From Escherichia phage vB_EcoM_PD205: a DNA stretch of 64,000 bases. The position numbers and the translations under genes are program-made. The notes beneath the pieces are model-generated. The model was not told the origin of the DNA. It searched no databases and saw only the letters and a program-made list of their open reading frames with translations. This document shows, in pieces, positions 1 to 26,965 of the stretch (its first letter is position 1; each line of letters begins with the position of its first letter). The stretch lies in sequence record ON922919. One strand, given 5' to 3'.

Positions 1-1074
1 CTGACGACGCAGGTCATTACCGTAGTTAGGATGGCAACGGAAGCAGTCATGTACAGTCATTACAGGGAAAGGTTTCTTAGGCATAGTATTGAGCATAGCC
101 AGGATTACATCTGTATCTACCAATGCAATGGTTTCTGAATCCAGATAATCAAAGATACGGGTAGACAGGAATCCAGACTTCTCATAACTAGTCCATAATG
201 TATTAACCATTTCATAGTTATCATCAGAACCAACCATGTAGTCACCAGTTCCTTCACAGATGGACTTAACATAGTTCACCTGGTTCATGTCGAAGTTACA
301 ACGACGTAGCATCTCACGTACCACCATTCCATCAATAGAGTGGGTGATGTTAGCAGAGAGCATACGGGTCTTCTCTTCAGTACCCTGAACCATACGAGTG
401 ATGTCGAATGGCTTACCTAAGAAGTTAACAGTCTGTACTTCAGGAACCATGACCTTAATGACAGCATGGAAGTTGTCAGGGAGTACCCATATGTAACGGT
501 TAGCATCTGGGTTACCACATTGCAGTAAGAACTTGTTAAGTGCCCAAGGACCACTAGCAACAGTTTCCATTACATTCTCAAAAGTCTTGAGACGAATACC
601 TTCACCGAATACTTCTTTAGGCTTGGCTTCTGAACCGTAGAATGCAGTCATAACAGCCTGTTTAGTGTCACTACGTTTAATACGTGATGCTTCACCAAGG
701 ATGTCCAGCATCTTGTGATAGATGACTGTATAAGCATCACGGCGTAATGGTTTACCATTCTCGCCCATGTAGTTAACTACGTTACACAGTTCAGCAGCAG
801 AGCGGTCACCAGTCAGGCAAGCCAGTAACTGCAAGCCTGATGATGTAGCATCCAGAGCTACGGCATAACCGATAGGCTTACCAGCTTTCATATCTTTCCA
901 TGCATTTATGCCTGCAAAGAACAGAGCAGAATCTTCAGCTTCATCTACCAGATTAAGCAGGTTAGCTTCGTTCTCATCGAACCAGGCAATACGTTCATCC
1001 CATGTCTTCTTGTCTAAGCCATAGTTATTAGCGATATCTACTTTCAGGTATTCACGAGCGGTTAACAGTTGCAT
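1..1074 (-). CDS. T7-like single-subunit RNA polymerase catalytic fragment (N4 RNAP II large-subunit-like); gene runs off the window start, only N-terminal ~358 codons present
   Basis: Own translation of minus strand from ATG 1074..1072 (AAGGAA 6 nt upstream): MQLLTAREYLKVDIANNYGLDKKTWDERIAWFDENEANLLNLVDEAEDSALFFAGINAWKDMKAGKPIGYAVALDATSSGLQLLACLTGDRSAAELCN... (verified codon by codon to this point); DATSSGLQ resembles T7 RNAP motif A (DGSCSGIQ). Less carefully checked continuation shows motif B-like MTAFYGSEAKPK and motif C-like VHDCF. Not in ORF track because it is open at the window edge. Confidence 0.8.
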   Translation of the reverse strand, partial: MQLLTAREYLKVDIANNYGLDKKTWDERIAWFDENEANLLNLVDEAEDSALFFAGINAWKDMKAGKPIGYAVALDATSSGLQLLACLTGDRSAAELCNVVNYMGENGKPLRRDAYTVIYHKMLDILGEASRIKRSDTKQAVMTAFYGSEAKPKEVFGEGIRLKTFENVMETVASGPWALNKFLLQCGNPDANRYIWVLPDNFHAVIKVMVPEVQTVNFLGKPFDITRMVQGTEEKTRMLSANITHSIDGMVVREMLRRCNFDMNQVNYVKSICEGTGDYMVGSDDNYEMVNTLWTSYEKSGFLSTRIFDYLDSETIALVDTDVILAMLNTMPKKPFPVMTVHDCFRCHPNYGNDLRRQ

Positions 1075-1118
1075 TTTATGTTCCTTAGCGTCTTGAGCCA
1101 CTCGGCTCGCATAGTGGA

Positions 1119-1625
1119 TTAATAGTTATTAAGTTCTTTGTTTGTTTTGGCGAACTCACCAAAGTATTTAATTGCGGCATCATCATATGCTTTAGCAGCC
1201 TCCACTGGGTCAGTGAATGAACCTAATGCTATTTTGGTGCCTTTAACTTGAATTTGGGCTAGGTATTTACCATTACGAATACGCACACCTTTAAATCCAG
1301 AAGTGTTATTCTTGTTCATAGTTCTATTGCACATGTTCTGTGCATGAGTTGCCTCACGTAGGTTACACCAACGGTTATTGGCCCGGTTTGTATCATTATG
1401 ATCTACCTGTTCGGGCCATGAACCAGTCATGATACACCAGGCTATGTGGTGAGCCTTGTATTCCTGTTTATTAATGACAATCTTTCGATGTCCTCTGGAG
1501 CCTGATAAGCCAGTCTCCTTACCCCTTACGTTGATGTACACCAAAGGACTATGAGTCCAATGAAATGTTCCATTCACTGGGTCATAGTCGATTAGTTCCA
1601 TCAACTCTGCTTGAGTTGGTTTCAT
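1119..1625 (-). CDS. HNH homing endonuclease with C-terminal AP2-like DNA-binding domain
   Basis: 168 aa ORF; HNH-type core (GHRKIVINKQEYKAHHIAWCIMTGSWPEQVDHNDTNRANNRWCNLREATHAQNMCN) and AP2-like tail (GFKGVRIRNGKYLAQIQVKGTKIALGSFTDPVEAAKAYDDAAIKYFG); start overlaps upstream stop (TAATG). Confidence 0.75.
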   Translation of the reverse strand: MKPTQAELMELIDYDPVNGTFHWTHSPLVYINVRGKETGLSGSRGHRKIVINKQEYKAHHIAWCIMTGSWPEQVDHNDTNRANNRWCNLREATHAQNMCNRTMNKNNTSGFKGVRIRNGKYLAQIQVKGTKIALGSFTDPVEAAKAYDDAAIKYFGEFAKTNKELNNY

Positions 1626-2440
1626 TAGTCCTCTACTGGTTCTTTGTCTGCAAATTCAATAACAGCTTTGTTATAGGAAGTGCCTTGGTAGGATATATGG
1701 TATCCGGAACAGTAAGTACGTCCTCTCTTATCGTAACGGTGAGCCAGTGAGAAGTTATTACCTTCTTTGGTCACTAACTCCATTACTTCCTTAGCTGTAC
1801 GGCTGTACTTCTCAAAGGCTTTAACACGTTTCTCGTAGTCCTGACGGGTTTCACCTTCTTTGGGTTTATCCATATTAGGACGAGAGTCTTTTACATAGTT
1901 AGCAACGTCCCAGTTAATGCAGAGACGTTGATTGTTCATACGGTTGATGTGGTCAAGACAGACATCCATCTCATGATGGTTCTTCTTGAGGATGATGCTA
2001 CCTCTGCTTTCGTAGTAACCAGTATCACGGTTACACAGAACAGGCTTAGGAGCACTTACGATAGGCAATGGATACTGGAATGCTTCCAGTTCCATCTGAA
2101 CATCTTCACTAATCTCATAAATAACACCGAACTTGTCGATGGTAGGGTCATAGTTGAAGCAGTCATTCTCTGCCATCTTATACAGACAGTCAGCAATGTA
2201 CTGAGCATCATCTGAGTGACTCATGAGTGAGCCAATCATAGTTTGGATGTCAGCACGTTTATGTAGGGCAATCTGCACCATTGCATCAATGAGCAGCTTA
2301 TAATCAATTTCTAAATAGGCAGCGAATGCCTTAAAGTCAATTTCTTCGGAGTCCTCGAATTCCTTCCTCATGCGAGGGAGTAATTGATTTTTGTTGAAAA
2401 GGATTTCAAGTTGCTTCTGATGTTCAATAGATGAGTACAT
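1625..2440 (-). CDS. T7-like RNA polymerase N-terminal catalytic-domain fragment (N4 RNAP II small-subunit-like)
   Basis: 271 aa; AHRYDKRGRTYCSGYHISYQG resembles T7 RNAP DxRGR motif region (MDWRGRVYAV); AGGAG RBS 9 nt upstream of ATG 2440; directly upstream of the large-subunit fragment. Confidence 0.65.
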   Translation of the reverse strand: MYSSIEHQKQLEILFNKNQLLPRMRKEFEDSEEIDFKAFAAYLEIDYKLLIDAMVQIALHKRADIQTMIGSLMSHSDDAQYIADCLYKMAENDCFNYDPTIDKFGVIYEISEDVQMELEAFQYPLPIVSAPKPVLCNRDTGYYESRGSIILKKNHHEMDVCLDHINRMNNQRLCINWDVANYVKDSRPNMDKPKEGETRQDYEKRVKAFEKYSRTAKEVMELVTKEGNNFSLAHRYDKRGRTYCSGYHISYQGTSYNKAVIEFADKEPVED

Positions 2441-2473
2441 CGCTTATTCTCCTAAATGTGATTAATAACCAAA

Positions 2474-2488
2474 AGCTGCGGAGCAGCT
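2474..2488 (-). promoter_or_regulatory. N4 vRNAP-type hairpin promoter (AGCTGC-GGA-GCAGCT, 6 bp stem, 3 nt loop); predicted +1 near 2470, transcription leftward
   Basis: Perfect inverted repeat with GGA loop on plus (template) strand, core GCGGAGC; 35 nt upstream of RNAP II gene start (2440); -11 G at loop centre and -8 G in stem; predicted +1 template base is C. Confidence 0.55.
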
Positions 2489-2493
2489 ATTAC

Positions 2494-2754
2494 CTAACGC
2501 TTAGTCCAAAAGGTAATACGAATACTATTTTCATTACCAATGTAGTCGATACGTACATGCAGACCATTACCATTAAACTCATTACTTTTCTTCTGATAAG
2601 GCCAGACTAGGCTAGTCATAGGTATTTTAACTAAGCCGGATATGTGACCCAGCTTAGTACGACTCTTTAATTCGTTCTGTAATGCACAATAGATGTCATG
2701 TCGTGTAAGTGCTCTAGCTCTGACTTGGGCAGACCACAGTTCTTCATAAGTCAT
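2494..2754 (-). CDS. hypothetical early protein
   Basis: ORF track 2494..2766 begins at TTG; in-frame ATG 2754..2752 preceded by TTGGAG (part of conserved CAACTATTGGAG motif) chosen as start. Confidence 0.4.
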   Translation of the reverse strand: MTYEELWSAQVRARALTRHDIYCALQNELKSRTKLGHISGLVKIPMTSLVWPYQKKSNEFNGNGLHVRIDYIGNENSIRITFWTKR

Positions 2755-2756
2755 TA

Positions 2757-3107
2757 TTAACTCCAATAGTTGTAAGCATTACCTAAGTATTTACACCATG
2801 CTTCTGGCAATAGCACATTGCCAGTGACATTATTGAACGGGTATGGGTCCAGAAAGTCATCTCCCATTACTTTGAAATCCCATTGAGGATTAACAGATGC
2901 ATAGGCAATAAAGCCTTCAACGAAGCCATAGATAGCACCCTCTTTAATTCGGTTACCATTGCCATCTCTTACTGGAATGGCAAAGCTATTACCATAATGT
3001 CCATAGGCCATACCCCAGCGAGCACCATGCTTCTTATAAGCTAATTTGGCAGCAGCATTAGTATGTTGTCCAAGTGTATTGGTAGTGAATACTAAGATCT
3101 CTTTCAT
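2757..3107 (-). CDS. hypothetical protein (Rossmann-like small protein, family not assigned)
   Basis: 116 aa ORF, ATG start, tightly packed in same-strand operon; Gly-rich motifs (GARWGMAYGHYGNSFAIP). Confidence 0.4.
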   Translation of the reverse strand: MKEILVFTTNTLGQHTNAAAKLAYKKHGARWGMAYGHYGNSFAIPVRDGNGNRIKEGAIYGFVEGFIAYASVNPQWDFKVMGDDFLDPYPFNNVTGNVLLPEAWCKYLGNAYNYWS

Positions 3108-3298
3108 TTGTATAACTTCCTTAAGCCCATATAGGCTTCTTTTTCAGTCATATTAAATTCAGGTCGACCTGCAATATAGAGATCTAGCTCTTTTAATGCT
3201 AACTCATGGTCACGTTGTTCTTTCTTGGTTCGGCAATGTCCACATTTACCATCCCATTGGGATACATAGCCTTTACCACATTTACATTGTTGGTTCAT
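3104..3298 (-). CDS. hypothetical zinc-ribbon protein
   Basis: 64 aa; CxC...CxxC arrangement (CKCGKG...CGHC); ATGA-type overlap with neighbours. Confidence 0.35.
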   Translation of the reverse strand: MNQQCKCGKGYVSQWDGKCGHCRTKKEQRDHELALKELDLYIAGRPEFNMTEKEAYMGLRKLYK

Positions 3299-3543
3299 TT
3301 AAAAGTACTCCATGGTATGGATTCCAAGTAATTAATTTTGTAAATAATCTTACTTCTTATTTCTCCACCAACATCTTGTACATGGATTAGGTTTAACCTT
3401 TGTGCTTGAGTTATTGTAGCTGCAAGGGTTCTTCCTATAATATTTGATATTTCTATAAAAGATTTATTAGATTCTACTAATATCCTTAAATTAGTATTAT
3501 CTAAATTACTCCACTCTTTGGAGTGGTTTGCTGGCTTATCCAT
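3295..3543 (-). CDS. hypothetical small protein, possible HTH DNA-binding, in AT-rich islet
   Basis: ORF track start 3558 is TTG; in-frame ATG 3543 with GGAG 9 nt upstream; body lies in conspicuously AT-rich stretch 3300..3530. Confidence 0.35.
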   Translation of the reverse strand: MDKPANHSKEWSNLDNTNLRILVESNKSFIEISNIIGRTLAATITQAQRLNLIHVQDVGGEIRSKIIYKINYLESIPWSTFK

Positions 3544-3916
3544 TAGGATTCTCCACAAAGTATTTGTACATAGCTTTTACTAGCTTCTCTTTAATAACCT
3601 CACCATGACATGGTTTTGGATAACAGAAGCATTGTAAAGCTAATCCTTTTTCATCAATGGCTTTATTACCAAGACGATTTAATTCATCCAGTACAATTGG
3701 ATTCTTTCTCATTATTTGCTCATTAAGCCATACTCGATACTTGGCTATAACTTGTTCTCTCGAACCGTCTTTACCAATAACGAATGGATTACCTAATGGT
3801 GAGCCACGTCCAATATACTCACCTGATTTACCATGATGTTTATTAACAATGATGATTGGACGTGCAGATACACCAAGCAAAGCATTGGTGTCATCACCTA
3901 AAGAGATATTCTTCAT
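3536..3916 (-). CDS. DUF4326-like protein
   Basis: 126 aa; motifs GRGSPLGNPF ... YRVWL ... CFCYPKPCHG recalled as characteristic of DUF4326; family name from memory, not searched. Confidence 0.45.
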   Translation of the reverse strand: MKNISLGDDTNALLGVSARPIIIVNKHHGKSGEYIGRGSPLGNPFVIGKDGSREQVIAKYRVWLNEQIMRKNPIVLDELNRLGNKAIDEKGLALQCFCYPKPCHGEVIKEKLVKAMYKYFVENPNG

Positions 3917-4227
3917 GGTTTAAGTACCTGGAATGCGAACACGGGACGTTTACTACGCCATTGGTTCATAGCTAGTTCACTAGTTTCAGAACCATCATGT
4001 AAGTCATAGATAAATGAGATTACATAGTCTGGTTCTTCCGGGAAGTTCTCTGTAGAGAAGGGTAGCCCTGATTCCTTAAGAATAGGAACCAGTGGAGATT
4101 CAGCATTACAGTACAGAGTAAACTCTTCATTGAATGCTTGGCTTGTCTGAGATACATAATCAATATTACGCATCATCTTATCTACATCAGTAAACGTAGA
4201 ATCATGGATTACTAGAATAGTTTTCAT
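3913..4227 (-). CDS. hypothetical protein
   Basis: 104 aa ORF, ATG, 4 nt overlaps with both neighbours. Confidence 0.4.
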   Translation of the reverse strand: MKTILVIHDSTFTDVDKMMRNIDYVSQTSQAFNEEFTLYCNAESPLVPILKESGLPFSTENFPEEPDYVISFIYDLHDGSETSELAMNQWRSKRPVFAFQVLKP

Positions 4228-4415
4228 ACTGGCTCCTTGCCTGTAAATGCTACTACTTTTCCTGACATATTCCGTAGGGTTACCTGTGCTGAGTTAACAT
4301 CAGCAAATTGCTCTGCAACCCAGTTAAGCATCTCAGGGTCATTATTTAATTGTTTGTTAATCACAGTTTTACTGTCTGCTGTTACTAAAGTGATTTCATA
4401 ATTTTCAATATTCAT
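4224..4415 (-). CDS. hypothetical protein
   Basis: 63 aa ORF, ATG, overlapping-stop operon arrangement. Confidence 0.3.
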   Translation of the reverse strand: MNIENYEITLVTADSKTVINKQLNNDPEMLNWVAEQFADVNSAQVTLRNMSGKVVAFTGKEPV

Positions 4416-4669
4416 GCTACTTTCTCCAGCGTTAGGTAAACGTTATTATTGACAATACTCAAATCACAGAAACCAATCTCTTCTTGTCTCCCAGAGGATA
4501 CCCAAATATTGTTTTTTGTTAGCTTAGGCTTCTTAGAGAAACCTATTAGTGAGGTATTAGCGCTCTTATATTGACGAGTATATAGAGCTATATACTTAAC
4601 CCAGTGAGGCACTTGAATAGTATGCTTCATATATTCCACAGTCTTACCTGTAGGATATGTAATAATCAT
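4412..4669 (-). CDS. hypothetical protein
   Basis: 85 aa ORF, ATG, overlapping-stop operon arrangement. Confidence 0.35.
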   Translation of the reverse strand: MIITYPTGKTVEYMKHTIQVPHWVKYIALYTRQYKSANTSLIGFSKKPKLTKNNIWVSSGRQEEIGFCDLSIVNNNVYLTLEKVA

Positions 4670-4887
4670 TTCTGATAACCTTCTATGAAGTTAGTACGAC
4701 GAATGAGCTGAGTGGATGCTTTAACAGCCGTCTTCTTGAACTCATCTTTGTGTTGGTTTTCCAATATCTTATCCCATTCTTTCTGGTTCCGTCGTTTCTG
4801 TAGGATACGACTACACTTTTTATGATTAGCAACTCCTTTACGTTTGTTACATACAGGGCAAATACCATAATTAGTGCTGTACATCAT
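4666..4887 (-). CDS. hypothetical protein with CxxC...C motif
   Basis: 73 aa; CPVCNKRKGVANHKKC; GGAGG upstream. Confidence 0.35.
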   Translation of the reverse strand: MMYSTNYGICPVCNKRKGVANHKKCSRILQKRRNQKEWDKILENQHKDEFKKTAVKASTQLIRRTNFIEGYQK

Positions 4888-5192
4888 TGGCTTAAAGCCT
4901 CCATTAATATTTTACGAATAACATTTACATCAGATTCAGTACCAATTAAGCCAACAGGCTTACCTGTACTATCTGTTACAAAGGTTGCAATCCTTTCCAT
5001 CTCTGCTGTAATTAATTTGTCCCCACTAATAAGACGATTACGAAGGTAAGCTTCATAAGCTACCTCTACATCTTCTACTGTGGTTCTTTCATTACGAGTG
5101 AATGGATTACTTAATGGGAATGGTAAGTGGATACGTATATTCCGGTCAGCTATCTTAGCTGATTGAGGAAGTATACAAACAATTTCATTCAA
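4884..5192 (-). CDS. hypothetical protein (weak DUF4326-like PLSNPF motif, lacks Cys/His tail)
   Basis: 102 aa; TTG start at 5192 with AGGAG 9 nt upstream (no in-frame ATG near); HLPFPLSNPF...AYEAYL resembles the GNPF...Y.WL core of the 3536..3916 protein. Confidence 0.35.
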   Translation of the reverse strand: MNEIVCILPQSAKIADRNIRIHLPFPLSNPFTRNERTTVEDVEVAYEAYLRNRLISGDKLITAEMERIATFVTDSTGKPVGLIGTESDVNVIRKILMEALSQ

Positions 5193-5270
5193 GATAATTT
5201 CTCCTATTTAAATACATATCTAACTATTCAAGAATAAAAAATAGAAGCCCCCCTAATGGAGCACTCCTTG

Positions 5271-5447
5271 TTATTTGATACATGGATGATTGAAGGTTAC
5301 GATACGAGCTTTACTTTGTTTAAGTCCTGCATCAATGAACTCTTTCAGCTGTTCATTGGTCATGCTGAGTGCCCGTTTACTTGCTACATTACGATTACGC
5401 ATACGAGTAACGTCTTCTTTGGTTCCCATGATTAATGACTTACGCAT
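5271..5447 (-). CDS. hypothetical protein
   Basis: ORF track 5271..5462 starts at GTG; first in-frame ATG at 5447; no clear RBS; low confidence. Confidence 0.25.
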   Translation of the reverse strand: MRKSLIMGTKEDVTRMRNRNVASKRALSMTNEQLKEFIDAGLKQSKARIVTFNHPCIK

Positions 5448-5610
5448 GATTTGGTTGTCCACATAAAGTTAAAAGGTTTATTGTTACGTACAATTCTTAC
5501 AACCATTTGATAGCCATTGAGTTGCACAACACCATAGTGTCGTTTCTGTACACCAGTGTGATACCTACGAAAGATACATTCTTCAATGGCATCATCTATG
5601 TTAGTGAATA

Positions 5611-5799
5611 TCACTGGTTCCTCTTTGCAAACTCTTCTGCTTGTTGCTTGTAGTACTGAGTCATTGCTTTCTTGTGTTTAACACTAGCAATGAGACACTC
5701 GATAGTAACGAATGGCAGCTTAGCAATAAGCAACCATTTATGACGTAATTTCCAACCCAGAAAGTAGAAGATTACACAGAAAGCGATGAAGTCTAACAT
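5611..5799 (-). CDS. hypothetical small membrane protein
   Basis: 62 aa; hydrophobic N-terminus (MLDFIAFCVIFYFLGW); GAGGA RBS. Confidence 0.3.
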   Translation of the reverse strand: MLDFIAFCVIFYFLGWKLRHKWLLIAKLPFVTIECLIASVKHKKAMTQYYKQQAEEFAKRNQ

Positions 5800-5900
5800 G
5801 GTTAATTCCTCTTCTAATATAAATCTATATCTATCTGGTTACTGTTTCAGTACCCTTCGTCTAAAGATACTCAAAAAGTAGAAATAGCTTATCGTCTAGT

Positions 5901-5930
5901 TAAAAATAAAAGACTCCCCGAAGGGAGTCT
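5901..5930 (-). terminator. rho-independent terminator (AGACTCCC-CGAA-GGGAGTCT; RNA loop UUCG) with U-tract
   Basis: 8 bp perfect stem 5911..5930; on minus strand followed by UUUAUUUUUA (5901..5910); 10 nt after stop of gene 5940..6320. Confidence 0.7.
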
Positions 5931-5939
5931 AGTAGTTGA

Positions 5940-6320
5940 TTAGAAAGTCAGTTTACGAGCATATTTATTCTCGTCTGCTGGGATGTCAGCAGCCTCTGCT
6001 TTCACACGACGAAGTTGAACTTGCAGGTTAATGATACCCTCTTCGCCTGGTTCCAGGTTCTGAGCATATTCAATTAACTGTTCCAGCAAGTCGTTCTGTG
6101 CACAACGCATTGCACGGAAGTCTTCGTTAGAGGAATTGGTTGGCAGATGCTCCTGAGTATCCAGTGGAATACCAGTAGGCAGAGAGATGAAACGTTCATC
6201 TTCAGTGCCTTCATTAGCAACATAACCAATGTTCAGCCAGAACTGAGCTTTAGGTTTATCAGCTTTAGCAGTGGTAGCAGCAGCGTTAGATTGACCGAAA
6301 GTGAATTTTTGAATAGACAT
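5940..6320 (-). CDS. hypothetical early protein (compact promoter-gene-terminator unit)
   Basis: ORF track 5940..6413; internal ATG 6320 with GGAGAG RBS chosen; hairpin promoter 6425..6439 upstream and terminator 5911..5930 downstream. Confidence 0.45.
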
Positions 6321-6424
6321 TTTGTACTCTCCAGATTTATGTGATTTACGGGTGAACTCGTCGGTGAGAACACCCAAACAAAAGGATAAAAGTTCAATGA
6401 TTAGTGGATGCATTTACATCCTTT

Positions 6425-6439
6425 AGACGCGGAGCGTCT
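6425..6439 (-). promoter_or_regulatory. N4 vRNAP-type hairpin promoter (AGACGC-GGA-GCGTCT); predicted +1 near 6421
   Basis: Perfect 6 bp stem with GGA loop, core GCGGAGC; intergenic between stop of 6446..6724 and gene 5940..6320; predicted +1 template base C. Confidence 0.55.
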
Positions 6440-6445
6440 TGATAA

Positions 6446-6724
6446 TTACTTGAAGAAATGTGGGTAGTCTTCTATGAATTGAGCTAAGTCATGTACATGC
6501 TCAATGACAGCTTTACGCTTGCACTGGCGTACTTGTTTAGCCGTAGGCTTAGATGTGAAAGCATACTGATGTACAGATGCAGTCATAGGGTTATCATCAA
6601 CTGATATCTCTACATCTACGGCCCATTGTGCAGGATTAGAAGTGTACATCATTCGAGATTTAGTAAATGTAGTTGAATGATTAAATGGTGATACATAGTG
6701 GATTGAGGTGTGAATAGTACGCAT
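6446..6724 (-). CDS. hypothetical early protein
   Basis: 92 aa ORF; ATG 6724 preceded by conserved CAACTATTGGAG motif; hairpin promoter 35 nt upstream. Confidence 0.4.
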   Translation of the reverse strand: MRTIHTSIHYVSPFNHSTTFTKSRMMYTSNPAQWAVDVEISVDDNPMTASVHQYAFTSKPTAKQVRQCKRKAVIEHVHDLAQFIEDYPHFFK

Positions 6725-6757
6725 AGCTTAATCTCCAATAGTTGAATGATATCCTAT

Positions 6758-6772
6758 AGATGCGGAGCATCT
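6758..6772 (-). promoter_or_regulatory. N4 vRNAP-type hairpin promoter (AGATGC-GGA-GCATCT); predicted +1 near 6754
   Basis: Perfect 6 bp stem with GGA loop; intergenic; predicted +1 template base C. Confidence 0.55.
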
Positions 6773-6777
6773 GGTTT

Positions 6778-7137
6778 TTAAGACAAGCGTTTAAGTAACT
6801 CTGCTTTAGCAGATTCATACTTTTCAGTAGCTTTAGAGTGGTCAATATCTGACTCACCGTATTCAAGGATGTCCCTTTCATACGTTGCAAGAACATCTAC
6901 TGCATCTTCAAAGCGTTCCAGTAGTTCATCCTTGTCTAGTTCTCCTTCACAGGATTCCCATTGCCATACATAACCTATTAACGGAATTGTTTCTTCTTTC
7001 TTAAAGTAAGGATTATTGCCACCATCTTTGACAGTAGAATCTTTAGTAAGACAGATACGTTCTCCTTCCAATTTTCCTACGATAATTGTTCCAACAGGAA
7101 CAGCAGCAGAACCTTTGATACAACGGAATTTAGTCAT
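6778..7137 (-). CDS. hypothetical protein with acidic C-terminus
   Basis: 119 aa ORF; AGGA RBS; C-terminal LERFEDAV motif shared with the small ORF 7150..7329. Confidence 0.4.
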   Translation of the reverse strand: MTKFRCIKGSAAVPVGTIIVGKLEGERICLTKDSTVKDGGNNPYFKKEETIPLIGYVWQWESCEGELDKDELLERFEDAVDVLATYERDILEYGESDIDHSKATEKYESAKAELLKRLS

Positions 7138-7149
7138 GATTTCCTATCC

Positions 7150-7329
7150 TTATGGTATGTAAGACATCCAGGTTAACATTTCAGCTTTGGCTTCTTGGTA
7201 TTCAGCTTCAACTACTTGAGGGTCAAATTGATTTCTATCATTTTGTAAACCCTCATGTGTTCTTACAGCTTCTTCGAATCTTTCCAGAGCTTCTTGTGGT
7301 GATTTAGCTTTGCAATCTGTCAGGGACAT
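7150..7329 (-). CDS. hypothetical small protein (59 aa, below ORF-track cutoff)
   Basis: Own translation: MSLTDCKAKSPQEALERFEEAVRTHEGLQNDRNQFDPQVVEAEYQEAKAEMLTWMSYIP; GGAG RBS; fills gap between annotated ORFs. Confidence 0.3.
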   Translation of the reverse strand: MSLTDCKAKSPQEALERFEEAVRTHEGLQNDRNQFDPQVVEAEYQEAKAEMLTWMSYIP

Positions 7330-7380
7330 TTTACTTCTCCTAAAGTAGATAACTATCTACTTAGTTGAACTATCTAATCT

Positions 7381-7408
7381 TTATAAAAGGAGACTCCGAA
7401 GAGTCTCC
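7381..7408 (-). terminator. rho-independent terminator (GGAGACTC-CGAA-GAGTCTCC; RNA loop UUCG) with U-tract
   Basis: 8 bp perfect stem 7389..7408 followed on minus strand by UUUUAUAA; 9 nt after stop of gene 7417..7740. Confidence 0.65.
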
Positions 7409-7416
7409 TATGTGGT

Positions 7417-7740
7417 TTAGTCTTTAGTCAGGATGTCAATTACTTTGGAATATTCTGCGTTATAGATACGAGCGTTCTCTGAATCCTTGCAGAATTCCTC
7501 GATACTTTTCTTACGCAGAGTCTCAGTCATAGCTGTTTCCTCTGCCAGTTTATTAACAAAGGTATGCATTTCTAATTTAGTACGAATGGCTTGTTTCTCT
7601 GCCATTGTACTTACATATGAATTAAGCATACCTACTGCTTTAGTTGCAGTGCTGAATGTATCTGCAACAGTAGTAGCAGCTGAGTTAACAGTACCAAGTA
7701 AAGTTCCTGCGGTCATACGTACAGTAGCTTGAGTAGTCAT
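7417..7740 (-). CDS. hypothetical early protein
   Basis: ORF track 7417..7818; internal ATG 7740 chosen because it is preceded by CAACTATTGGAG motif (GGAG RBS) and the upstream part overlaps a promoter-like hairpin. Confidence 0.4.
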   Translation of the reverse strand: MTTQATVRMTAGTLLGTVNSAATTVADTFSTATKAVGMLNSYVSTMAEKQAIRTKLEMHTFVNKLAEETAMTETLRKKSIEEFCKDSENARIYNAEYSKVIDILTKD

Positions 7741-7784
7741 GATGATAGCTCCAATAGTTGATGATAGGACGACATGTCCATAAC

Positions 7785-7795
7785 ATGCGGAGCAT
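7785..7795 (-). promoter_or_regulatory. degenerate N4 vRNAP-type hairpin promoter (ATGC-GGA-GCAT, 4 bp stem); predicted +1 near 7779
   Basis: Shares 11 nt core ATGCGGAGCAT with hairpin 6758..6772 but outer stem pairs are lost; 45 nt upstream of ATG 7740; predicted +1 template base C. Confidence 0.35.
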
Positions 7796-7851
7796 CGCTG
7801 ACGAACGAAGTGAGTCAAGCATGTGTAACGTGTAAGGTGGGGTAGGGTAGT

Positions 7852-7922
7852 GGCTACACCGTCAACATACCGGGGGGGCTAGTTGAGTGTAAGGGTGTAG
7901 CCCCAGCCACACCACTGTAGCC
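7852..7922. repeat. intergenic repeat cluster: GGCTACACC (7852..7860) inverted to GGTGTAGCC (7894..7902), plus second direct copy TGTAGCC (7916..7922)
   Basis: Read directly; 9 bp inverted repeat with 33 nt spacer, alternative 7 bp pairing partner 20 nt further on; flanked by GGGTAGGGTAG and a G7 run. Confidence 0.5.
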
Positions 7923-7967
7923 ATACATAACTATGCTACTTTTCATACGCAAAATATGATAGCTATC

Positions 7968-8294
7968 TTACTTATAAGCAGTTAAATAGGAGGAAGGAAT
8001 CTGGGAGAGGATGTAGTCATAGTAATAGCAATATGCTTCACTATAGGTAGAGTTTATAGGCATACCTATGTAGTCAAACACCCATAAACAGAAATGATTG
8101 AGTTCGTGGATGAGTGTATGTAAAGGTTCCTTGAAGATACCAATCAATACACGATTACCAGAGTAAGTAGTATACCCTTTACAACCTTCCAAGTCTGGCT
8201 CATACCCTTTGAGCTTCTTGTATTTCTTAATGAAGGTATCCTGGTCGAATACTACTTCTAACTGTACCGGGTAGGGTGCTGTGTTTAGTTTCAT
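7968..8294 (-). CDS. hypothetical protein with HExxH motif (possible minimal zinc metallopeptidase-like protein)
   Basis: 108 aa; LIHELNHFCLWVFDY contains HELNH; ATG start. Confidence 0.35.
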   Translation of the reverse strand: MKLNTAPYPVQLEVVFDQDTFIKKYKKLKGYEPDLEGCKGYTTYSGNRVLIGIFKEPLHTLIHELNHFCLWVFDYIGMPINSTYSEAYCYYYDYILSQIPSSYLTAYK

Positions 8295-8575
8295 TGTCTT
8301 TCCTTATAGATTGGGGTGTTATCCTCGAAGGATAGGATGTACTTGTCTGTATTAAGATGCCAAGGACTAAAGCTACCCTGCCAGGACATAGGTGTTCCTG
8401 GCTCAAGTAGATATACTTCTGCCTTCTTATTGTATAGGAAGAGTAATCCTTGTAATTCATGCAGAGACTGCTCATCTGGAACCAAGATAAGTACATCTGC
8501 GTCTAGATTAGCTATATCTTTATGACGGTAGTAGTCATCCTCAAGTACTGCTGAATAAATTTTACTGATAACCAT
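8291..8575 (-). CDS. hypothetical protein, member of tandem paralog family
   Basis: 94 aa; shared motif DADVLILVPDEQSLHELQGLLFL...VYLLEP. Confidence 0.4.
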   Translation of the reverse strand: MVISKIYSAVLEDDYYRHKDIANLDADVLILVPDEQSLHELQGLLFLYNKKAEVYLLEPGTPMSWQGSFSPWHLNTDKYILSFEDNTPIYKERQ

Positions 8576-8892
8576 TAGAGACTCTCGTCGCTAGTTAAAT
8601 ATGAGGTAGAAGGATACAGGGTAATAAGTCTACCAGTTAAGGTAGTAACTACCTTAGGTTCACTGGAGGAATAGATATACACAACTACATTCTCTGGAAC
8701 TTCAATGGAGGTATCTATTTTAATAAAGGTAATAGGTACACCCAACATGAGGCAGGTTCCGATGAACTCATCTGCTTTTTCGCATTGTTCGTAGTACATG
8801 GTCATAGGCGTGCTTATTCTAATCCAGTGAGATTTACCTACCCCCAGATTAAGGGGACTGGTACTACGATAACTCAAACCATAGAAGCGCAT
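8575..8892 (-). CDS. hypothetical protein, possible diverged member of tandem paralog family
   Basis: 105 aa; similar size and position; TAATG overlap with downstream gene. Confidence 0.35.
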   Translation of the reverse strand: MRFYGLSYRSTSPLNLGVGKSHWIRISTPMTMYYEQCEKADEFIGTCLMLGVPITFIKIDTSIEVPENVVVYIYSSSEPKVVTTLTGRLITLYPSTSYLTSDESL

Positions 8893-8895
8893 ACC

Positions 8896-9210
8896 TTACT
8901 TCCTTACATAGTAGTAACGGGATTCACCATCCTCATAGCGACAATCCCATTGGTAATCATCAGACACCATCATGTATGGGATAGGTTCCCCGGAGTTAAA
9001 GTTGGTATAGACAGATGGAGGAACAATACATACAACCTTACGGTCATTACCTGCTAAGAAGAGTTGACCCCTTACTTCATGGTAGTCCTCTAAAGTAGGA
9101 ACCAGGATTACTTGCTGGGGGTTGCTGTCCATGACTTCTTCTAAAGTGAAGTCTCCTGCATACATAGCCCCCCTTCCAGTAAAACTAGGGATGGTCATTA
9201 TGAATTTCAT
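8896..9210 (-). CDS. hypothetical protein, member of tandem paralog family
   Basis: 104 aa; PQQVILVPTLEDYHEVRGQLFL...VVCIVPPS; AAGGAGGGAG RBS upstream of ATG 9210. Confidence 0.4.
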   Translation of the reverse strand: MKFIMTIPSFTGRGAMYAGDFTLEEVMDSNPQQVILVPTLEDYHEVRGQLFLAGNDRKVVCIVPPSVYTNFNSGEPIPYMMVSDDYQWDCRYEDGESRYYYVRK

Positions 9211-9574
9211 GATTGGTTCTCCCTCCTTTAGGGATAGGTCTGAAGTAAATGGAAAGTGTTTTATTAAAGACGTTATGGTCTGCTATCATTTCCCAACCAG
9301 CTATCTTATAGAAATGTACACCAGGGAAAAATGTTTCGAAGTTTGCATACTCGGTAAGGTCATACACCTTTGGTTCAGTAAGTATCTCAGCATTAAGTTG
9401 CAGGTTGGTTAAGAAAAAAGAACCAATAATCTCGTGGGATTCGTCGCAATCAGGAAAGAATACTGATTGTCTTGGTGATAATATCTTACTTACTACCTCA
9501 GGTTCCTCAAGATAATACGGTTCTTGTTTACGGAGTACTCCAGTAATATCAATATCAAAAGCGTAGATGCTCAT
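9185..9574 (-). CDS. hypothetical protein, member of tandem paralog family
   Basis: 129 aa; ...DCDESHEIIGSFFL...AEILTEP; GGAGG RBS; preceded by terminator hairpin. Confidence 0.4.
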   Translation of the reverse strand: MSIYAFDIDITGVLRKQEPYYLEEPEVVSKILSPRQSVFFPDCDESHEIIGSFFLTNLQLNAEILTEPKVYDLTEYANFETFFPGVHFYKIAGWEMIADHNVFNKTLSIYFRPIPKGGRTNHEIHNDHP

Positions 9575-9589
9575 ATTTGCATACCTCCT

Positions 9590-9626
9590 GAAAAAGAAAT
9601 GGGGTAGAGCCTCTCGACTCTACCCC
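9590..9626 (-). terminator. rho-independent terminator (GGGGTAGAG / CTCTACCCC, 9 bp stem) with U-tract
   Basis: Hairpin 9601..9626; on minus strand followed by AUUUCUUUUU (9590..9600). Confidence 0.6.
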
Positions 9627-9774
9627 TTACCGTTTTCTATCACGGGTCAGTTCATCACCCTAGATACATGTGTATCGTTAGCCTACTAGGTAGGAAAGGA
9701 GCCGGGCAACCCTGACTGTAGAAGTTATTAACTCTTTACGAGTACCGCCACTGTCTACTAGGCGGCATGACTAA

Positions 9775-10065
9775 TCACATCATCACCGTCATCCGAACAC
9801 TGTCTTTGCTTCGCCTGACGGAGACACTATGAGGTAATTTTGTGAAGAACACAAGAGAGGAGGGGCGTTTTTCTAAAGAGTAAGTTTCTCTTGGTTCTAA
9901 GATTTTAATGCCGGGTCGATTCTCTAAAAGCATCATCCCAGCTAATTCATGGTAGGTATTTTCATCATGTGTGATGATAATGTCATCTGAAAGAATACCA
10001 GCCTTAGTGTGGTCTAGTTCTTTGTATTCATCTTTAGAGTCATGGACTCTCATATAGATTCTCAA
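9775..10065 (-). CDS. hypothetical protein, member of tandem paralog family
   Basis: 96 aa; ...SDDIIITHDENTYHELAGMMLL...IKILEP; start codon at 10065 is TTG with AAGGAG 7 nt upstream. Confidence 0.35.
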   Translation of the reverse strand: MRIYMRVHDSKDEYKELDHTKAGILSDDIIITHDENTYHELAGMMLLENRPGIKILEPRETYSLEKRPSSLVFFTKLPHSVSVRRSKDSVRMTVMM

Positions 10066-10236: not shown

Positions 10237-10926
10237 ATGAGTGAACTAACTAAGCAGCAGATTATTAATGCCTTACCTGCTAACTTCAAAAACAGTGTGA
10301 CCCAAGAGTTAGTAGACACAATTAACAACATAACCCAAGACCAACTGGTTGCTGAGTCCTTCCGTGAAAACTTCATCTCCTACTCTGGTGTTATGAAGGA
10401 AGGTAAGTTTAAGACCCAGGACTACATGAATGCAGTTCAGTATGTGACTTACAAACATATGGGCTACTCAAATAAGGAAGCCTACTTCAAGACATTCCCT
10501 AACCGACAAGCAGAACTTGTTGCACGAGGAACCAGTGAGAAAGATATTAGTGCCTACGTATCTGCTTACCACAGGGGTAAGTTAGTTAACCTCATCATGG
10601 AACAAAGTTTGGTTCCAGTGTGGATTGTGAACCAGGACAATTATCAGAAGGCAATCAACGTTCAGGTTGAACTGATGACTACAGCAGCAAGTGAGAAAGT
10701 AAGATGTGATGCAGCTAACTCTATCCTTACTCACTTAGCTAAACCGAAAGACCAGGTAACTAATATCAACCTGGACTTGAGAGAGAACTCCGGATTGACC
10801 GACCTCAGGGCAACACTTGCTGCATTAGCTGAACAGCAGATTAATGCAATCAACAGTGGTGTACCCACCAAAGAGGTTGCTGGTTCTAAACTAGTACGTG
10901 CAGATGAGGACATTACAGATGTCTGA
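10237..10926 (+). CDS. hypothetical protein; position immediately upstream of and overlapping terminase large subunit suggests terminase small subunit
   Basis: 229 aa ORF, first gene of plus-strand late module; function inferred from synteny only. Confidence 0.4.
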   Translation: MSELTKQQIINALPANFKNSVTQELVDTINNITQDQLVAESFRENFISYSGVMKEGKFKTQDYMNAVQYVTYKHMGYSNKEAYFKTFPNRQAELVARGTSEKDISAYVSAYHRGKLVNLIMEQSLVPVWIVNQDNYQKAINVQVELMTTAASEKVRCDAANSILTHLAKPKDQVTNINLDLRENSGLTDLRATLAALAEQQINAINSGVPTKEVAGSKLVRADEDITDV

Positions 10927-12508
10927 GTTAATTAAGCAGGAACTGGATGAATGGCTAGACCAGGTGGATTACTCCCACCTTAATTCATCTAACTATGTTC
11001 CTAGTCAGTTTGCTCTTACCTTTGCCAACTTTATTAAGTTGGTTAACGGCAAAGAGGGTGAGTCCAACAAAACACCTCCAGTTCACTTGAAGATGCTGGA
11101 TAAGATGATTAGTCCGAACCAGTATGTAGTTAACCTGTGCTTCCGTGGTGCAGGTAAGACTGCTGTGTTCATGGAATACTTTACTTTGTTCCTGGCAGTG
11201 TTTGGTCACTTACCAAGTTTGGGTAAGGTAGAGGGAATGATTTACGTATCTGACTCAATGGATAACGGTGCTAAGTCTGCACGTAAGAACATCGAGTTCC
11301 GTTACAAGAATAGTGAGTTTCTTCAGCAATGGATACCTGAAGCTACTTTTACAGATAACCTGTTAGAGTTTCGTAATGTAGAAGGGCATCGACTAGGTGT
11401 TAAGCTGTTTGGTGCTAAGACAGGTCTTCGTGGTACGAAGATATATGGTAAACGTCCAACACTCTGCGTACTGGATGACTTGATTAGTGATGGTGATGCT
11501 AACTCCAAGACGAGCATGGAAGCTATTAAAGACACCGTTTATAAAGGTGTGAACCATGCTCTTGACCCTACTCGTCGTAAAGTAATCTTCAACGGTACTC
11601 CCTTTAATAAGGAAGACATTATCATTGAAGCTGTTGAGTCTGGTGCATGGGATGTCAACGTATGGCCTGTATGTGAGAAGTTCCCTTGCAGTAGAGAAGA
11701 ATTTCAGGGTGCATGGGATGACCGTTTCTCTTACGACTACATTAAAGCCCAATATGACATGGCAGTTAAGACTGGTAAGCTGGCAGGTTTCTATCAGGAA
11801 CTTATGCTCCGTATCAGTTCTGAAGATGAGAGACTGGTTCAGGATAGTGAAATTAGATGGTATAGCAGACAGCAACTATTAAGGATGAAGTCTTGCTATA
11901 ACTATTACATCACAACCGACTTTGCTACATCGGAGAAACAGACCAGTGACTACAGTGTCATATCAGTTTGGGCTTATAGTTCTAATGGAGATTGGTTCTG
12001 GGTTGATGGTGTGGCTAATCGTCAGCTTATGGATAAAAACTTTGATGACCTGTTCCGTCTGGTTCAAGAATACCAACCACAAAACGTTGGGGTCGAAATC
12101 ACAGGGCAGCAAGGTGGATTCATTTCACTCCTTCAGAAGGAAATGATTAACCGTAATGTCTTCTTTAACTTTGCATCTTCTGAGGGTGGTAAGCCAGGCA
12201 TCCGTCCTGTAACTTCTAAGCTGTCACGCTTTAACCTGGTAGTTCCATGGTTCAAAGCTGGTAAGATGTATTTCCCGGAAGAGTTGAGAGACTCAACTAT
12301 TATGGGTCTGTTCATGGGTCAGATTAAACTAGCTACCATTAATGGAATCAAAGGCAAGGATGACTGTATTGATACTATCTCCATGCTGGGTTATCTCAAT
12401 CCTTGGAAGCCGCAAGCAGGTATGACTATGGTGGATAATAAGGGTGACCCAATGTGGGATGACGAAGAAGAAGATAGTGTTAACCCACTACGTTCATACA
12501 TTGTGTGA
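10919..12508 (+). CDS. terminase large subunit
   Basis: ORF track 10898..12508; ATG 10919 preferred (GAGGA RBS, ATG overlaps upstream stop); Walker A-like LCFRGAGKTAV, Walker B-like LCVLDDLISDGD, C-terminal nuclease-like region. Confidence 0.8.
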   Translation: MSELIKQELDEWLDQVDYSHLNSSNYVPSQFALTFANFIKLVNGKEGESNKTPPVHLKMLDKMISPNQYVVNLCFRGAGKTAVFMEYFTLFLAVFGHLPSLGKVEGMIYVSDSMDNGAKSARKNIEFRYKNSEFLQQWIPEATFTDNLLEFRNVEGHRLGVKLFGAKTGLRGTKIYGKRPTLCVLDDLISDGDANSKTSMEAIKDTVYKGVNHALDPTRRKVIFNGTPFNKEDIIIEAVESGAWDVNVWPVCEKFPCSREEFQGAWDDRFSYDYIKAQYDMAVKTGKLAGFYQELMLRISSEDERLVQDSEIRWYSRQQLLRMKSCYNYYITTDFATSEKQTSDYSVISVWAYSSNGDWFWVDGVANRQLMDKNFDDLFRLVQEYQPQNVGVEITGQQGGFISLLQKEMINRNVFFNFASSEGGKPGIRPVTSKLSRFNLVVPWFKAGKMYFPEELRDSTIMGLFMGQIKLATINGIKGKDDCIDTISMLGYLNPWKPQAGMTMVDNKGDPMWDDEEEDSVNPLRSYIV

Positions 12509-12514
12509 GGAACC

Positions 12515-13225
12515 ATGCAAAAATTATCGGAAGTATATCGTGGCCTGGCACTAAGTACCTTGAAAGGTACTGGTGCAGTCACTGATGACAGATTAGATAT
12601 TGAACCAGATAGTAAGCCTGAGATATTAGCTGCTATTAATGAGGGACTGGTACGACTGCATAGTCGTTTCCCTCTTAGAACTAATAGCTGCATTGTGGAG
12701 ATGAAGGAAGGTCGCACTGATTATCCCCTTCAATCTAAGTATGCTTACTCCAGATTTACTAAGCCTACTCTTGAGATTCAATACCCGTATATCATGGATG
12801 GGTTCATGAAACCTTTCCAGGATGACGTTATTAAAATCTTAAATGTGTTTGATAACTCAGGGAATCGACGTAGACTGAACGACGATTCAGACCCCCATGC
12901 AATCTTCACCCCAAGACCGGATACTATTCAGTGTATGCGACCTCGACACTTCGAGGCACTTAACGTAACTTATCAAGCTAAGCACCCTGTACTTACGGGT
13001 GATGAAGAACAGGAAGTTGACTTAGCAGACACGCTAATGACAGCACTTCATAACTGGGTGGGTTATCGTTACCACACTGGTTTAAATACTCCGGAAGCTA
13101 ATGCTAAGGCAGCAGAGTATCTGCAAACGTATGAAAGCATCTGTGGTGAGGTTGTTGATTATGACCTGGCTAATGGAAGTATTTCAATTACCGAAACTAA
13201 ATTTGAACAACGAGGATGGCGATGA
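12515..13225 (+). CDS. hypothetical virion protein
   Basis: 236 aa; GAGGAA RBS; between terminase and tail fibre genes. Confidence 0.4.
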   Translation: MQKLSEVYRGLALSTLKGTGAVTDDRLDIEPDSKPEILAAINEGLVRLHSRFPLRTNSCIVEMKEGRTDYPLQSKYAYSRFTKPTLEIQYPYIMDGFMKPFQDDVIKILNVFDNSGNRRRLNDDSDPHAIFTPRPDTIQCMRPRHFEALNVTYQAKHPVLTGDEEQEVDLADTLMTALHNWVGYRYHTGLNTPEANAKAAEYLQTYESICGEVVDYDLANGSISITETKFEQRGWR

Positions 13226-15930: not shown

Positions 15931-15938
15931 TATCAATT

Positions 15939-15954
15939 CCCCTCTTCGGAGGGG
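15939..15954 (+). terminator. terminator-like hairpin (CCCCTC-UUCG-GAGGGG) after tail fibre gene
   Basis: 6 bp stem with UUCG tetraloop 9 nt after stop; followed by AUUCUU. Confidence 0.45.
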
Positions 15955-15980
15955 GATTCTTAGAATAAAACGAGGCATAT

Positions 15981-18314: not shown

Positions 18315-18327
18315 CTAGATAAAACTA

Positions 18328-18352
18328 AGGCCCCAAATGGGGCCTTTTCTTA
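18328..18352 (+). terminator. rho-independent terminator (AGGCCCC-AAAU-GGGGCCU + UUUUCUU)
   Basis: 7 bp GC-rich stem 18328..18345 followed by T-tract; 14 nt after tailspike stop. Confidence 0.65.
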
Positions 18353-18565
18353 TATAGAGTTTACTGTTTGCATTACCCTAACCGATACTGCTGTTAGGAT
18401 GATTACTTGCCCAAATATGTTAAACATGCCCAATTGAATACCATCTACCACGGATTGATACCAGACACTATGTCTGGATGTACCTCATCATACTAAGTAT
18501 TATCTAAGAGTCATCTTATGATATGACCCTATTGGGGATTCTAACTACACAACTACGGTAATATT

Positions 18566-18895
18566 ATGAATGAATCTGGTGAGCTGCTCCTAGTCAGACT
18601 GGAGGAACGATTGAAGACTCTGTTTGAGAACCAGACGAGAGACAGGCAGGACCGAGAGAAACTGGAGGAAACTCTGGTAGAACTACGGGATTCAATCAAC
18701 GACATAGGCAATAGACTAAAAAATGTGGAGGATAGTTTAGCTAAGAACGAACCTACTATTGAAGAGTTCATCACCATTAAGCATAAAGTTGTTGGTGCAG
18801 GAATTTTTGGTAAGTGGGTGTGGGCTGGGGCAGGTGCAATTATTGGTGTATTAGCTGCTGCAAGACGGGAGATATTCGCATGGTTCGCAGGCTGA
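18566..18895 (+). CDS. hypothetical membrane protein (N-terminal coiled-coil, C-terminal TM helix); possible lysis-associated protein
   Basis: 109 aa; C-terminal VGAGIFGKWVWAGAGAIIGVLAAA hydrophobic segment; first gene of lysis cluster. Confidence 0.35.
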   Translation: MNESGELLLVRLEERLKTLFENQTRDRQDREKLEETLVELRDSINDIGNRLKNVEDSLAKNEPTIEEFITIKHKVVGAGIFGKWVWAGAGAIIGVLAAARREIFAWFAG

Positions 18896-19140
18896 AAAGA
18901 AAGGTAGAGTTAGTACCTAACTGGAAAAGATGCTGGAAGTGGGCATCCATTCAGATTAGTACGCTTGGGTTAATTATGTTTTCTGCCATAGATATCATTC
19001 AACCAATGCTGACAGGATTACCTCGTCACATCCTGGAAGATATTCCCCATGGTTCCAATATTGCAATCGCACTGTTTGCCCTAAATATTGTAGGCAGATT
19101 AATACGATTCCGACCAAAGGAAGATTCACATGAAAGCTAA
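18880..19140 (+). CDS. putative holin (two predicted TM helices)
   Basis: In-frame ATG 18880 within ORF-track ORF 18814..19140 (GGGAG RBS; overlaps upstream stop); hydrophobic stretches WKWASIQISTLGLIMFSAIDIIQP and IAIALFALNIVGRLIRF; immediately upstream of endolysin. Confidence 0.4.
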   Translation: MVRRLKRKVELVPNWKRCWKWASIQISTLGLIMFSAIDIIQPMLTGLPRHILEDIPHGSNIAIALFALNIVGRLIRFRPKEDSHES

Positions 19141-19765: not shown

Positions 19766-20252
19766 AGGTTGGCCTTATCTTCTGGTGGTGGTCCTAGGGG
19801 CCACCATTTACTTTTGGGGTAACTCCAATGGACAGTCCACTGTTCAAAAGAAGTGGGATGACCAAAAGGTTGAAGATCAAAAGGCACTACAAAAATTACA
19901 GGACAAATACAATGCTCTCCAAAGAAACCATAGTTATGAAGTCGGGTTACTCACTTCCCGGTTGCAGACGGCTGAGAGTAATTATGCAAGCGAGCTTGCT
20001 CGCGTTAGCAGTGATTACGACAGCCGGATGCAACAGTCTGAAAGACGAGCATCGGTATATAAACGTCAAGCCGAAGCCGGAACCTTTGAGTGCAGAAGTC
20101 TTGCAAGCCATGCAGCCAGACTCGACAACAGTCTTGAAGAAGGCAGACGTTTGGTTGAAGAACTCAGGGCAACTGTTAGACTCCGTGACAGCCAACTAAT
20201 TGAGTTGGGTAAACAGATTCAGGCTGACCGTAAACTTTTTGAACAGGAATAA
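19746..20252 (+). CDS. i-spanin (Rz-like)
   Basis: ORF track 19725..20252; ATG 19746 with GGAGG RBS; N-terminal TM ([25 protein letters not shown]) followed by coiled-coil-like charged region. Confidence 0.55.
19936..20199 (+). CDS. o-spanin (Rz1-like lipoprotein) embedded in +1 frame of i-spanin
   Basis: Within ORF 19828..20199; lipoprotein signal with lipobox ([12 protein letters not shown]); alternative start ATG 19984; GC-rich local composition. Confidence 0.5.
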   Translation: MKSGYSLPGCRRLRVIMQASLLALAVITTAGCNSLKDEHRYINVKPKPEPLSAEVLQAMQPDSTTVLKKADVWLKNSGQLLDSVTAN

Positions 20253-20254
20253 CT

Positions 20255-22525: not shown

Positions 22526-22538
22526 GGCAGACCTTCAC

Positions 22539-22883: not shown

Positions 22884-22902
22884 TTAACCGGAGATATTTC
22901 CT

Positions 22903-26964: not shown

Positions 26965-26965
26965 T

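Follow-up and report, generated by a model that had tools for sequence, protein, structure and literature searches.

Predicted hairpin promoters of the N4 virion RNA polymerase type in the early region of a G7C-like coliphage

The early region and its four hairpins

The stretch of 64,000 nucleotides analysed here (the window) belongs to Escherichia phage vB_EcoM_PD205 (record ON922919) and, as judged from its sequence, to an N4-like phage, more precisely a G7C-like (Gamaleyavirus) relative of coliphage N4. Its first 10.2 kb share 87-94% DNA identity with genomes of Gamaleyavirus (G7C-like, Schitoviridae) coliphages. According to the list of open reading frames (ORFs), a minus-strand gene block (1..10065) is followed by plus-strand late genes (10237..42903) and a minus-strand replication block (46300..64000). 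Homologues of the N4 genes gp1, gp2, gp15 and gp16 lie in the first block together with four short inverted repeats, sites 1 to 4 (Table 1), and these four sites are very probably single-strand hairpin promoters for the phage's own injected virion RNA polymerase (vRNAP).

In an alignment of seven sequences (alignment A1: window, N4, G7C, IME11, nithesis, Mimir124, and PE007), the records of N4, G7C and Mimir124 begin at ~7908-7912 of the window, and several related records break near position ~7910. This indicates that the window is circularly permuted and that its terminal repeat has been collapsed. The early region would thus extend leftwards from a physical left end at ~7910, as read from the sequence. 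All four sites lie at most 5.4 kb from this end, with the plus strand as the template.

Table 1. Coordinates of the four hairpin sites and of associated features in the window.
Feature	Position	Strand	Sequence or basis
Site 1, putative early promoter, N4 P3 orthologue	2474..2488	+	AGCTGC-GGA-GCAGCT; predicted +1 C 2470
Site 2, putative early promoter, N4 P2 orthologue	6425..6439	+	AGACGC-GGA-GCGTCT; predicted +1 C 6421
Site 3, putative early promoter, no N4 counterpart	6758..6772	+	AGATGC-GGA-GCATCT; predicted +1 C 6754
Site 4, putative early promoter P1, N4 P1 orthologue	7785..7795	+	ATGC-GGA-GCAT, 4-bp stem; predicted +1 C 7779
27-nt insertion CGCTGACGAACGAAGTGAGTCAAGCAT in upstream arm of P1 hairpin	7796..7822	+	alignment A1
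Virion RNA polymerase, N4 gp50 homologue, 3,590-aa ORF	32131..42903	+	ORF list; alignment with N4 gp50
gp1 homologue, early gene, ATG at 7740	7417..7740	-	tblastn N4 gp1 66%, E 1e-43; phrog_5020
92-aa early ORF, function unassigned	6446..6724	-	ORF list; phrog_12748, E 1.6e-19
gp2 homologue (cofactor of N4 RNAPII)	5940..6413	-	tblastn N4 gp2 71%, E 9e-77; phrog_4099
gp15 homologue (small subunit, middle RNA polymerase)	1625..2440	-	tblastn N4 gp15 65%, E 2e-120; phrog_2166 'N4-like RNA polymerase'
gp16 homologue (large subunit, middle RNA polymerase)	1..1074	-	tblastn N4 gp16 residues 1-357: 70%, E 1e-172
Terminator-like hairpin just past gp1 stop codon	7388..7409	-	AGGAGACTC-TTCG-GAGTCTCCT then TTTTAT
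Terminator-like hairpin just past gp2 stop codon	5911..5930	-	AGACTCCC-TTCG-GGGAGTCT then TTTATTTTT
Approximate physical left genome end	7908..7912	.	record starts, record breaks

Sequence, spacing and statistics of the sites

Direct reading of the sequence and a palindrome scan recovered the four hairpins exactly where the first-pass annotation had placed them, with perfect 6-bp stems around 3-nt loops at sites 1, 2 and 3 and a stem of 4 bp at site 4, which had rightly been called the weaker one. The common core GCGGAGC occurs exactly four times in the 64 kb, both strands included, and each copy is intergenic, as had also been claimed, and lies on the template strand for the minus-strand early genes; in nithesis, a close annotated relative, the intergenic share of the corresponding region is only ~9.5% (from annotation coordinates). 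The predicted G at the loop centre (-11) and the G at -8 are present at all four sites, and so is the template C 11 nt from the loop centre, which is directly followed by a second C (+2) in every case. One claim of the first-pass annotation did not hold, namely that the sites lie 30 to 100 nt upstream of the gene starts: from hairpin edge to start codon the distances are 34, 12, 34 and 45 nt for sites 1 to 4, leaving predicted leaders of 30, 8, 30 and 39 nt, respectively. The DNA folds at sites 1, 2 and 3 have predicted energies of -4.3 to -5.7 kcal/mol (z about -3.2 to -3.5).

The comparison with shuffled controls, proposed in the first-pass annotation, favoured the motif only when the flanking stem was required, as the bare heptamer on its own is close to expectation (4 observed vs 2.28 expected, with 18 of 100 shuffles reaching 4; non-significant). 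Once a minimum of 4 stem pairs was required, 4 copies were observed vs 0.164 expected and none of 1000 dinucleotide shuffles reached this number, while a 6-bp stem gave 3 observed vs 0.010 expected (likewise 0/1000). A covariance model scored the four sites at 28.6-37.8 bits, partly by construction because it was trained on 44 distinct sites including these four. Its informative outcome is therefore that the 64 kb hold no further candidate: even with filters off no additional site was found in the window, the next best hit reaching 12.9 bits (3116..3142, E 0.25). A scan of the window for loop variants (GAA, GCA or GTA) was equally negative.

Correspondence to the N4 promoters

The vRNAP promoter of N4 is a template-strand hairpin in which inverted repeats flank a GC-rich heptamer centred at -11, with a loop of G(-10), G/A(-11) and A(-12) and a closing pair -9C:-13G; the polymerase makes specific contacts to -11, -10, -8G and +1C and initiates at a fixed distance from the hairpin (PMC4496689). 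Read 5' to 3' on the plus strand, GCGGAGC corresponds to -8G, -9C, -10G, -11G, -12A, -13G and -14C, and all four sites possess -11G, -10G, -12A, the -9C:-13G closing pair, -8G and +1C, while the template CC at +1/+2 matches the GG-initiated transcripts of N4.

Three of the sites have direct counterparts among the N4 promoters, which were taken from NC_008720 (template strand, 5' to 3'). Site 1 precedes the gp15 homologue and is identical base for base from +2 to -18 (CCAAAAGCTGCGGAGCAGCT) to N4 P3 (AAGCTGC-GGA-GCAGCTT), which lies ahead of gp15. Site 2, ahead of gp2, is by sequence and position the P2 orthologue; N4 P2 (AAGAAGC-GGA-GCTTCTT) immediately precedes gp2 with a leader of 10 nt. Site 4, ahead of gp1 and ~120 nt from the genome end, is the P1 orthologue as judged from the flanking alignment A1, and N4 P1 (GTTGC-GAA-GCAAC) is found ~60 nt ahead of gp1. 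Much of the promoter architecture is thus shared with N4, i.e. a template-strand hairpin with a 3-nt loop, the GC-GGA-GC heptamer centred at -11, -8G, CC at +1/+2, equal spacing, and a location ahead of gp1, gp2 and gp15 near the left end. The two phages differ in the number of sites (four here vs three), the extra site 3 preceding a small ORF that is absent from N4, in the P1 loop (GGA here vs GAA in N4), and in stem length, which is 4 bp at P1 owing to a 27-nt insertion and otherwise 6 bp, compared with 5-7 bp in N4.

The virion RNA polymerase

The enzyme expected to read the four hairpins, by analogy to N4, is encoded in the late block of the window. It shares 67% identity with N4 gp50 overall and 71% in the polymerase domain (mini-vRNAP region). 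Residue numbering was validated on N4 gp50, where D559, K670, Y678, D951 and W129 stand where the literature puts them. The catalytic residues D559, K670, Y678 and D951 are conserved in the window vRNAP, as are the promoter-contact residues K114, R119, W129, K268, K849, K850, D901 and R904. The ORF was called from a TTG at 32131; the alignment of MSVFDRLAG with MSTFDRLAG of N4 gp50 favours the ATG at 32149, which is likely the true start.

Conservation and covariation in related phages

A locus search based on gp15 gave eight close relatives, and wider sampling was achieved by tblastn against a phage collection. In total, 24 related loci were scanned (N4, G7C, nine other phage-collection records, eight IMG/VR contigs, Jgk1, BEU42, UCB24, KP8, and Achromobacter JWAlpha). 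Every GCGGAGC copy in these loci is flanked by a stem of at least 4 bp and, where gene orientation is known, lies on the template strand of the early genes, with 3 to 5 such sites per genome. The predicted +1 position is C in all copies but one, a fourth hairpin of G7C (~509) that is located after gp1 and has a predicted +1 G. The heptamer and the +2 C are invariant across sites, while the outer stem varies yet stays paired. Stem length ranges from 4 to 8 bp with the loop centre constantly 11 nt from CC, in agreement with the fixed-distance 'ruler' described for N4 (PMC4496689). Among the 44 distinct sites from the window and the related loci, the pairs -7:-15 and -6:-16 occur as four and three pair types, respectively, and neither is ever unpaired (0/44). 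The covariation score amounted to 0.413, compared with 0.130 in shuffles (none of 500 reaching the observed value) and at most 0.134 in slid controls. Equivalents of site 3 are present in K57alpha1.2, ST4, L015, and Jgk1. The K57alpha1.2 record (OY979416.1, a Klebsiella phage) has annotations for vRNAP, primase, SSB and further genes, each marked as a pseudogene. They disagree with the early-region sequence by which this record matches the window, and the feature table is apparently shifted relative to the sequence.

These promoters are marked in none of nine annotated G7C-like records that were inspected, and a literature search, beyond the reach of which lay the G7C genome paper, found no paper tying G7C to vRNAP hairpins. 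The closest described set is that of Klebsiella phage KP8 (Kaypoctavirus; PMC6950046 Table 1, regulatory features of MG922974), likewise with four sites and a GCTCCGC core on the coding strand. Their layout is the same, with one site near the genome end, one before a small ORF ('P2'), one directly ahead of the gp2 analogue and one upstream of that of gp15, but the stem sequences are different, KP8 P4 is parted from gp15 by a small ORF, and KP8 P1 has a 5-bp stem. Both the KP8 set and the set in the window are predictions by similarity to N4. In Pseudomonas phage LUZ7, early promoters mapped by ONT-cappable-seq are likewise hairpins of the template strand, with 3 nt in the loop and 4 bp or more in the stem, give G-initiated RNA, and are served by a homologous giant vRNAP (PMC9163698). 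However, this polymerase is far more distant, the start lies 13-14 nt and not 11 nt from the hairpin centre, and the early starts number nine (PMC9163698). Early hairpin promoters of a similar kind have been predicted for LIT1/PEV2 (PMC3715699).

The insertion at P1

In relatives, P1 has the ancestral form ACATGC-GGA-GCATGT with a 6-bp stem. The 27-nt insertion splits the upstream arm, and because it ends in GCAT, four of the six stem pairs are regenerated while -5:-17 becomes C:C, which leaves a 4-bp stem. Since GCAT stands at both 7792-7795 and 7819-7822, the placement of the insertion is ambiguous by 4 nt. Of the seven sequences in alignment A1, the window and PE007 (OQ938542) alone have it, and among the matches listed PE007 is the sole record without a matched span ~26 nt shorter than the query. 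The inserted sequence has no second copy in the window, and no larger compensating structure results from it (z 0.04 for the 64-nt fold).

Proposed mechanism

The interpretation as promoters of the N4 vRNAP type, already put forward in the first-pass annotation, is supported by sequence motif, position, statistics, orthology, covariation, and the contact residues of the polymerase. That the hairpins extrude, that the polymerase binds them and where exactly the RNAs start is inferred, with the individual steps taken over from N4. Host gyrase would supercoil the entering DNA and the inverted repeats would extrude as cruciforms, of which host SSB would melt the non-template hairpin, whereas the hairpin on the template (plus) strand would persist. 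The vRNAP would then bind this template hairpin, with W129 stacked on -11G, K114 and R119 bonding -10G and -11G, and D901 and R904 reading -9C/-10G and -8G, and RNA synthesis would begin with GG at the template CC, which lies 11 nt from the loop centre. Leftward transcription would run from P1 (7790) into gp1, from the site at 6765 into the 92-aa ORF, from P2 (6432) into gp2, and from P3 (2481) through gp15, an intervening 168-aa ORF and gp16. The early products would build the middle-gene RNA polymerase and its cofactors.

Alternative interpretations

Hairpins in such positions might also be intrinsic terminators or RNA processing signals for read-through transcripts instead of promoters. Each hairpin indeed lies just past the stop codon of the preceding gene, and at site 1 a simple scan for terminators gave a hit on the minus strand (AGCTGCTCCGCAGCT followed by TTTGGTTATT); its hit at site 3 was on the plus strand, i.e. 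not the strand of the early transcript. However, the RNA-sense strand after sites 2, 3 and 4 (AAAGGATG, ATAGGATA, and GTTATGGA, respectively) has no U-run, and distinct, far stronger TTCG-loop hairpins with T-runs follow gp1 and gp2. Moreover, an invariant heptamer at a fixed distance of 11 nt to CC is untypical of terminators, and at the orthologous N4 sites transcription initiation has been mapped (PMC4496689), which makes a role in termination or processing very improbable. We regard it as slightly less probable still that the palindromes are duplex operators for a dimeric DNA-binding protein or chance occurrences. Perfect palindromes around a 3-nt centre resemble many operators, but the shuffles rule out chance, the analysis yielded no candidate regulator, and the outer stem varies while staying complementary, with only the asymmetric G-G-A core and the one-sided CC fixed. 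Such an asymmetric fixed core combined with a covarying stem fits a folded single strand that is read on one strand, and not a symmetric duplex site.

Several observations weigh against vRNAP promoters, most of them at site 4, where the stem of 4 bp falls short of the 5-7 bp of N4's own promoters, -5:-17 is the only unpaired case among the 44 distinct sites, and the predicted DNA fold (-2.3 kcal/mol, z -0.7) is no better than that of shuffles. Further, only sites with 4 or more stem pairs were admitted to the covariation alignment, although no GCGGAGC copy failed this filter, and K267 of the vRNAP is replaced by N, the only contact residue that differs. Together with a second lysine of the intercalating hairpin, K267 enforces the junction between stem and single strand. 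A stem shorter than 5 bp lowers the confidence in site 4 without excluding it and renders its activity uncertain. Site 4 might accordingly be a crippled relic whose hairpin was destroyed by the insertion, with early transcription starting at the three intact promoters only, and the shortened stem, the unique C:C, a fold unlike the canonical hairpin, and the lack of a compensating structure in the extended region are all in line with this. Yet we consider a relic unlikely. The GCAT at the end of the insertion keeps the heptamer, -8G, the four inner pairs, the spacing, and CC at +1/+2 all intact, and the variant is viable as it also occurs in PE007, which was deposited independently. Nearest-neighbour energies, moreover, omit the special stability of a G-G-A loop with a sheared G:A pair. 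The mapped early promoters of LUZ7 have stems of at least 4 bp (PMC9163698), and P1 is the only site in the first ~500 bp, which in the N4 model are internalised before the remaining DNA is drawn in by transcription (PMC4496689). On balance, site 4 is considerably more likely to be an active promoter than a dead one.

Genes served, leaders and terminators

The alignments of the N4 proteins span 7740..7429 (gp1), 6413..5943 (gp2), 2434..1631 (gp15), and 1074..1 (gp16), and the 3' part of the gp16 homologue extends beyond the window start. In G7C-type records, the gp2 homologue is labelled 'RNAP1 subunit A'. Between the gp15 and gp16 homologues lies the 168-aa ORF (1119-1625, minus strand); an HNH endonuclease of equal size is annotated at its position in Mimir124, while nithesis and IME11 have other small ORFs there. 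From these sequences, the gap looks like a mobile homing-endonuclease slot that separates two RNA polymerase subunit genes.

The predicted early transcripts of the window and the related loci fall into two classes, with leaders of either 23-44 nt containing an internal GGAG Shine-Dalgarno sequence or only 8-11 nt. At site 3, a 30-nt leader carries GGAG ahead of the 92-aa ORF, and at site 1 a leader of the same length carries AGGAGA ahead of the gp15 homologue. The predicted RNA of site 2 has an 8-nt leader ahead of the gp2 homologue (GGAUGUAA-AUG), similar to that of N4 (GGAUGAAGUA-AUG). In the short-leader class (GGAUGUAA-AUG, GGAUAAGA-AUG, and GGAGAUUAACU-AUG), the obligatory 5'-terminal GGA(G/U) is the only Shine-Dalgarno-like element, and hence the template CC at +1/+2 may have a double role, in starting transcription and in ribosome binding. 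An AUG-UAA start-stop mini-ORF in the gp2 transcript (GGAUGUAAAUG) was rejected as a conserved feature given that relatives have GGAUAAGAAUG or GGAUUCGAUGUG.

The TTCG hairpins after gp1 and gp2 are, by their sequence, probably early terminators. An equivalent hairpin follows gp1 in N4 (GGAGGCTCCTCGGAGTCTCCTTTT), and as in N4, these terminator-like elements appear to bound short early transcription units. Across positions 1-10300, terminator-like hairpins are enriched (19 vs 5.6 +/- 2.1 in shuffles) and Sigma-70-like promoter matches are depleted (10 vs 30.1 +/- 6.3).

The genome end close to P1 contains a conserved block (~7830-7912) with a C7 run (plus strand GGGGGGG, 7873-7879), and the C-run of PE007 is longer. 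A direct terminal repeat (DTR) of 403 bp is annotated in the Mimir124 record. As a terminal repeat of ~400 bp would be collapsed in the permuted assembly of the window, a copy of P1 is probably located at each end of the virion DNA. In the Jgk1 record, the P1 sequence is found twice (94 and 594), 500 bp apart, which suggests that the terminal repeat was kept in tandem in the deposited record. Elsewhere in the window, a single tRNA gene, tRNA-Ala (anticodon CGC), is located at 45409-45480 on the minus strand, between the late and middle gene blocks.

Significance

The four hairpins are a further instance of a well-characterised class of phage promoters, and the finding, while correct, is ordinary given the direct counterparts of N4 P1-P3 and the equivalent features already annotated in the sister phage KP8. 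Our understanding of the N4-type system is unchanged by it. Its main value lies in annotation, as promoters can be placed to the base by homology in G7C-like genomes, where they define the early transcription units, i.e. gp1, the 92-aa ORF, gp2, and gp15 through gp16. The comparative table of sites further provides a ready collection of naturally varied stems that all enclose the same core. The truncated P1 is, tentatively, the only part that has not already been described, and it could possibly show in a natural setting how small a working promoter can be. If P1 is active, the GC-GGA-GC core and two further base pairs would suffice for hairpin extrusion and vRNAP recognition in vivo, and if it is dead, genome entry in this phage would be independent of P1, contrary to the N4 model.

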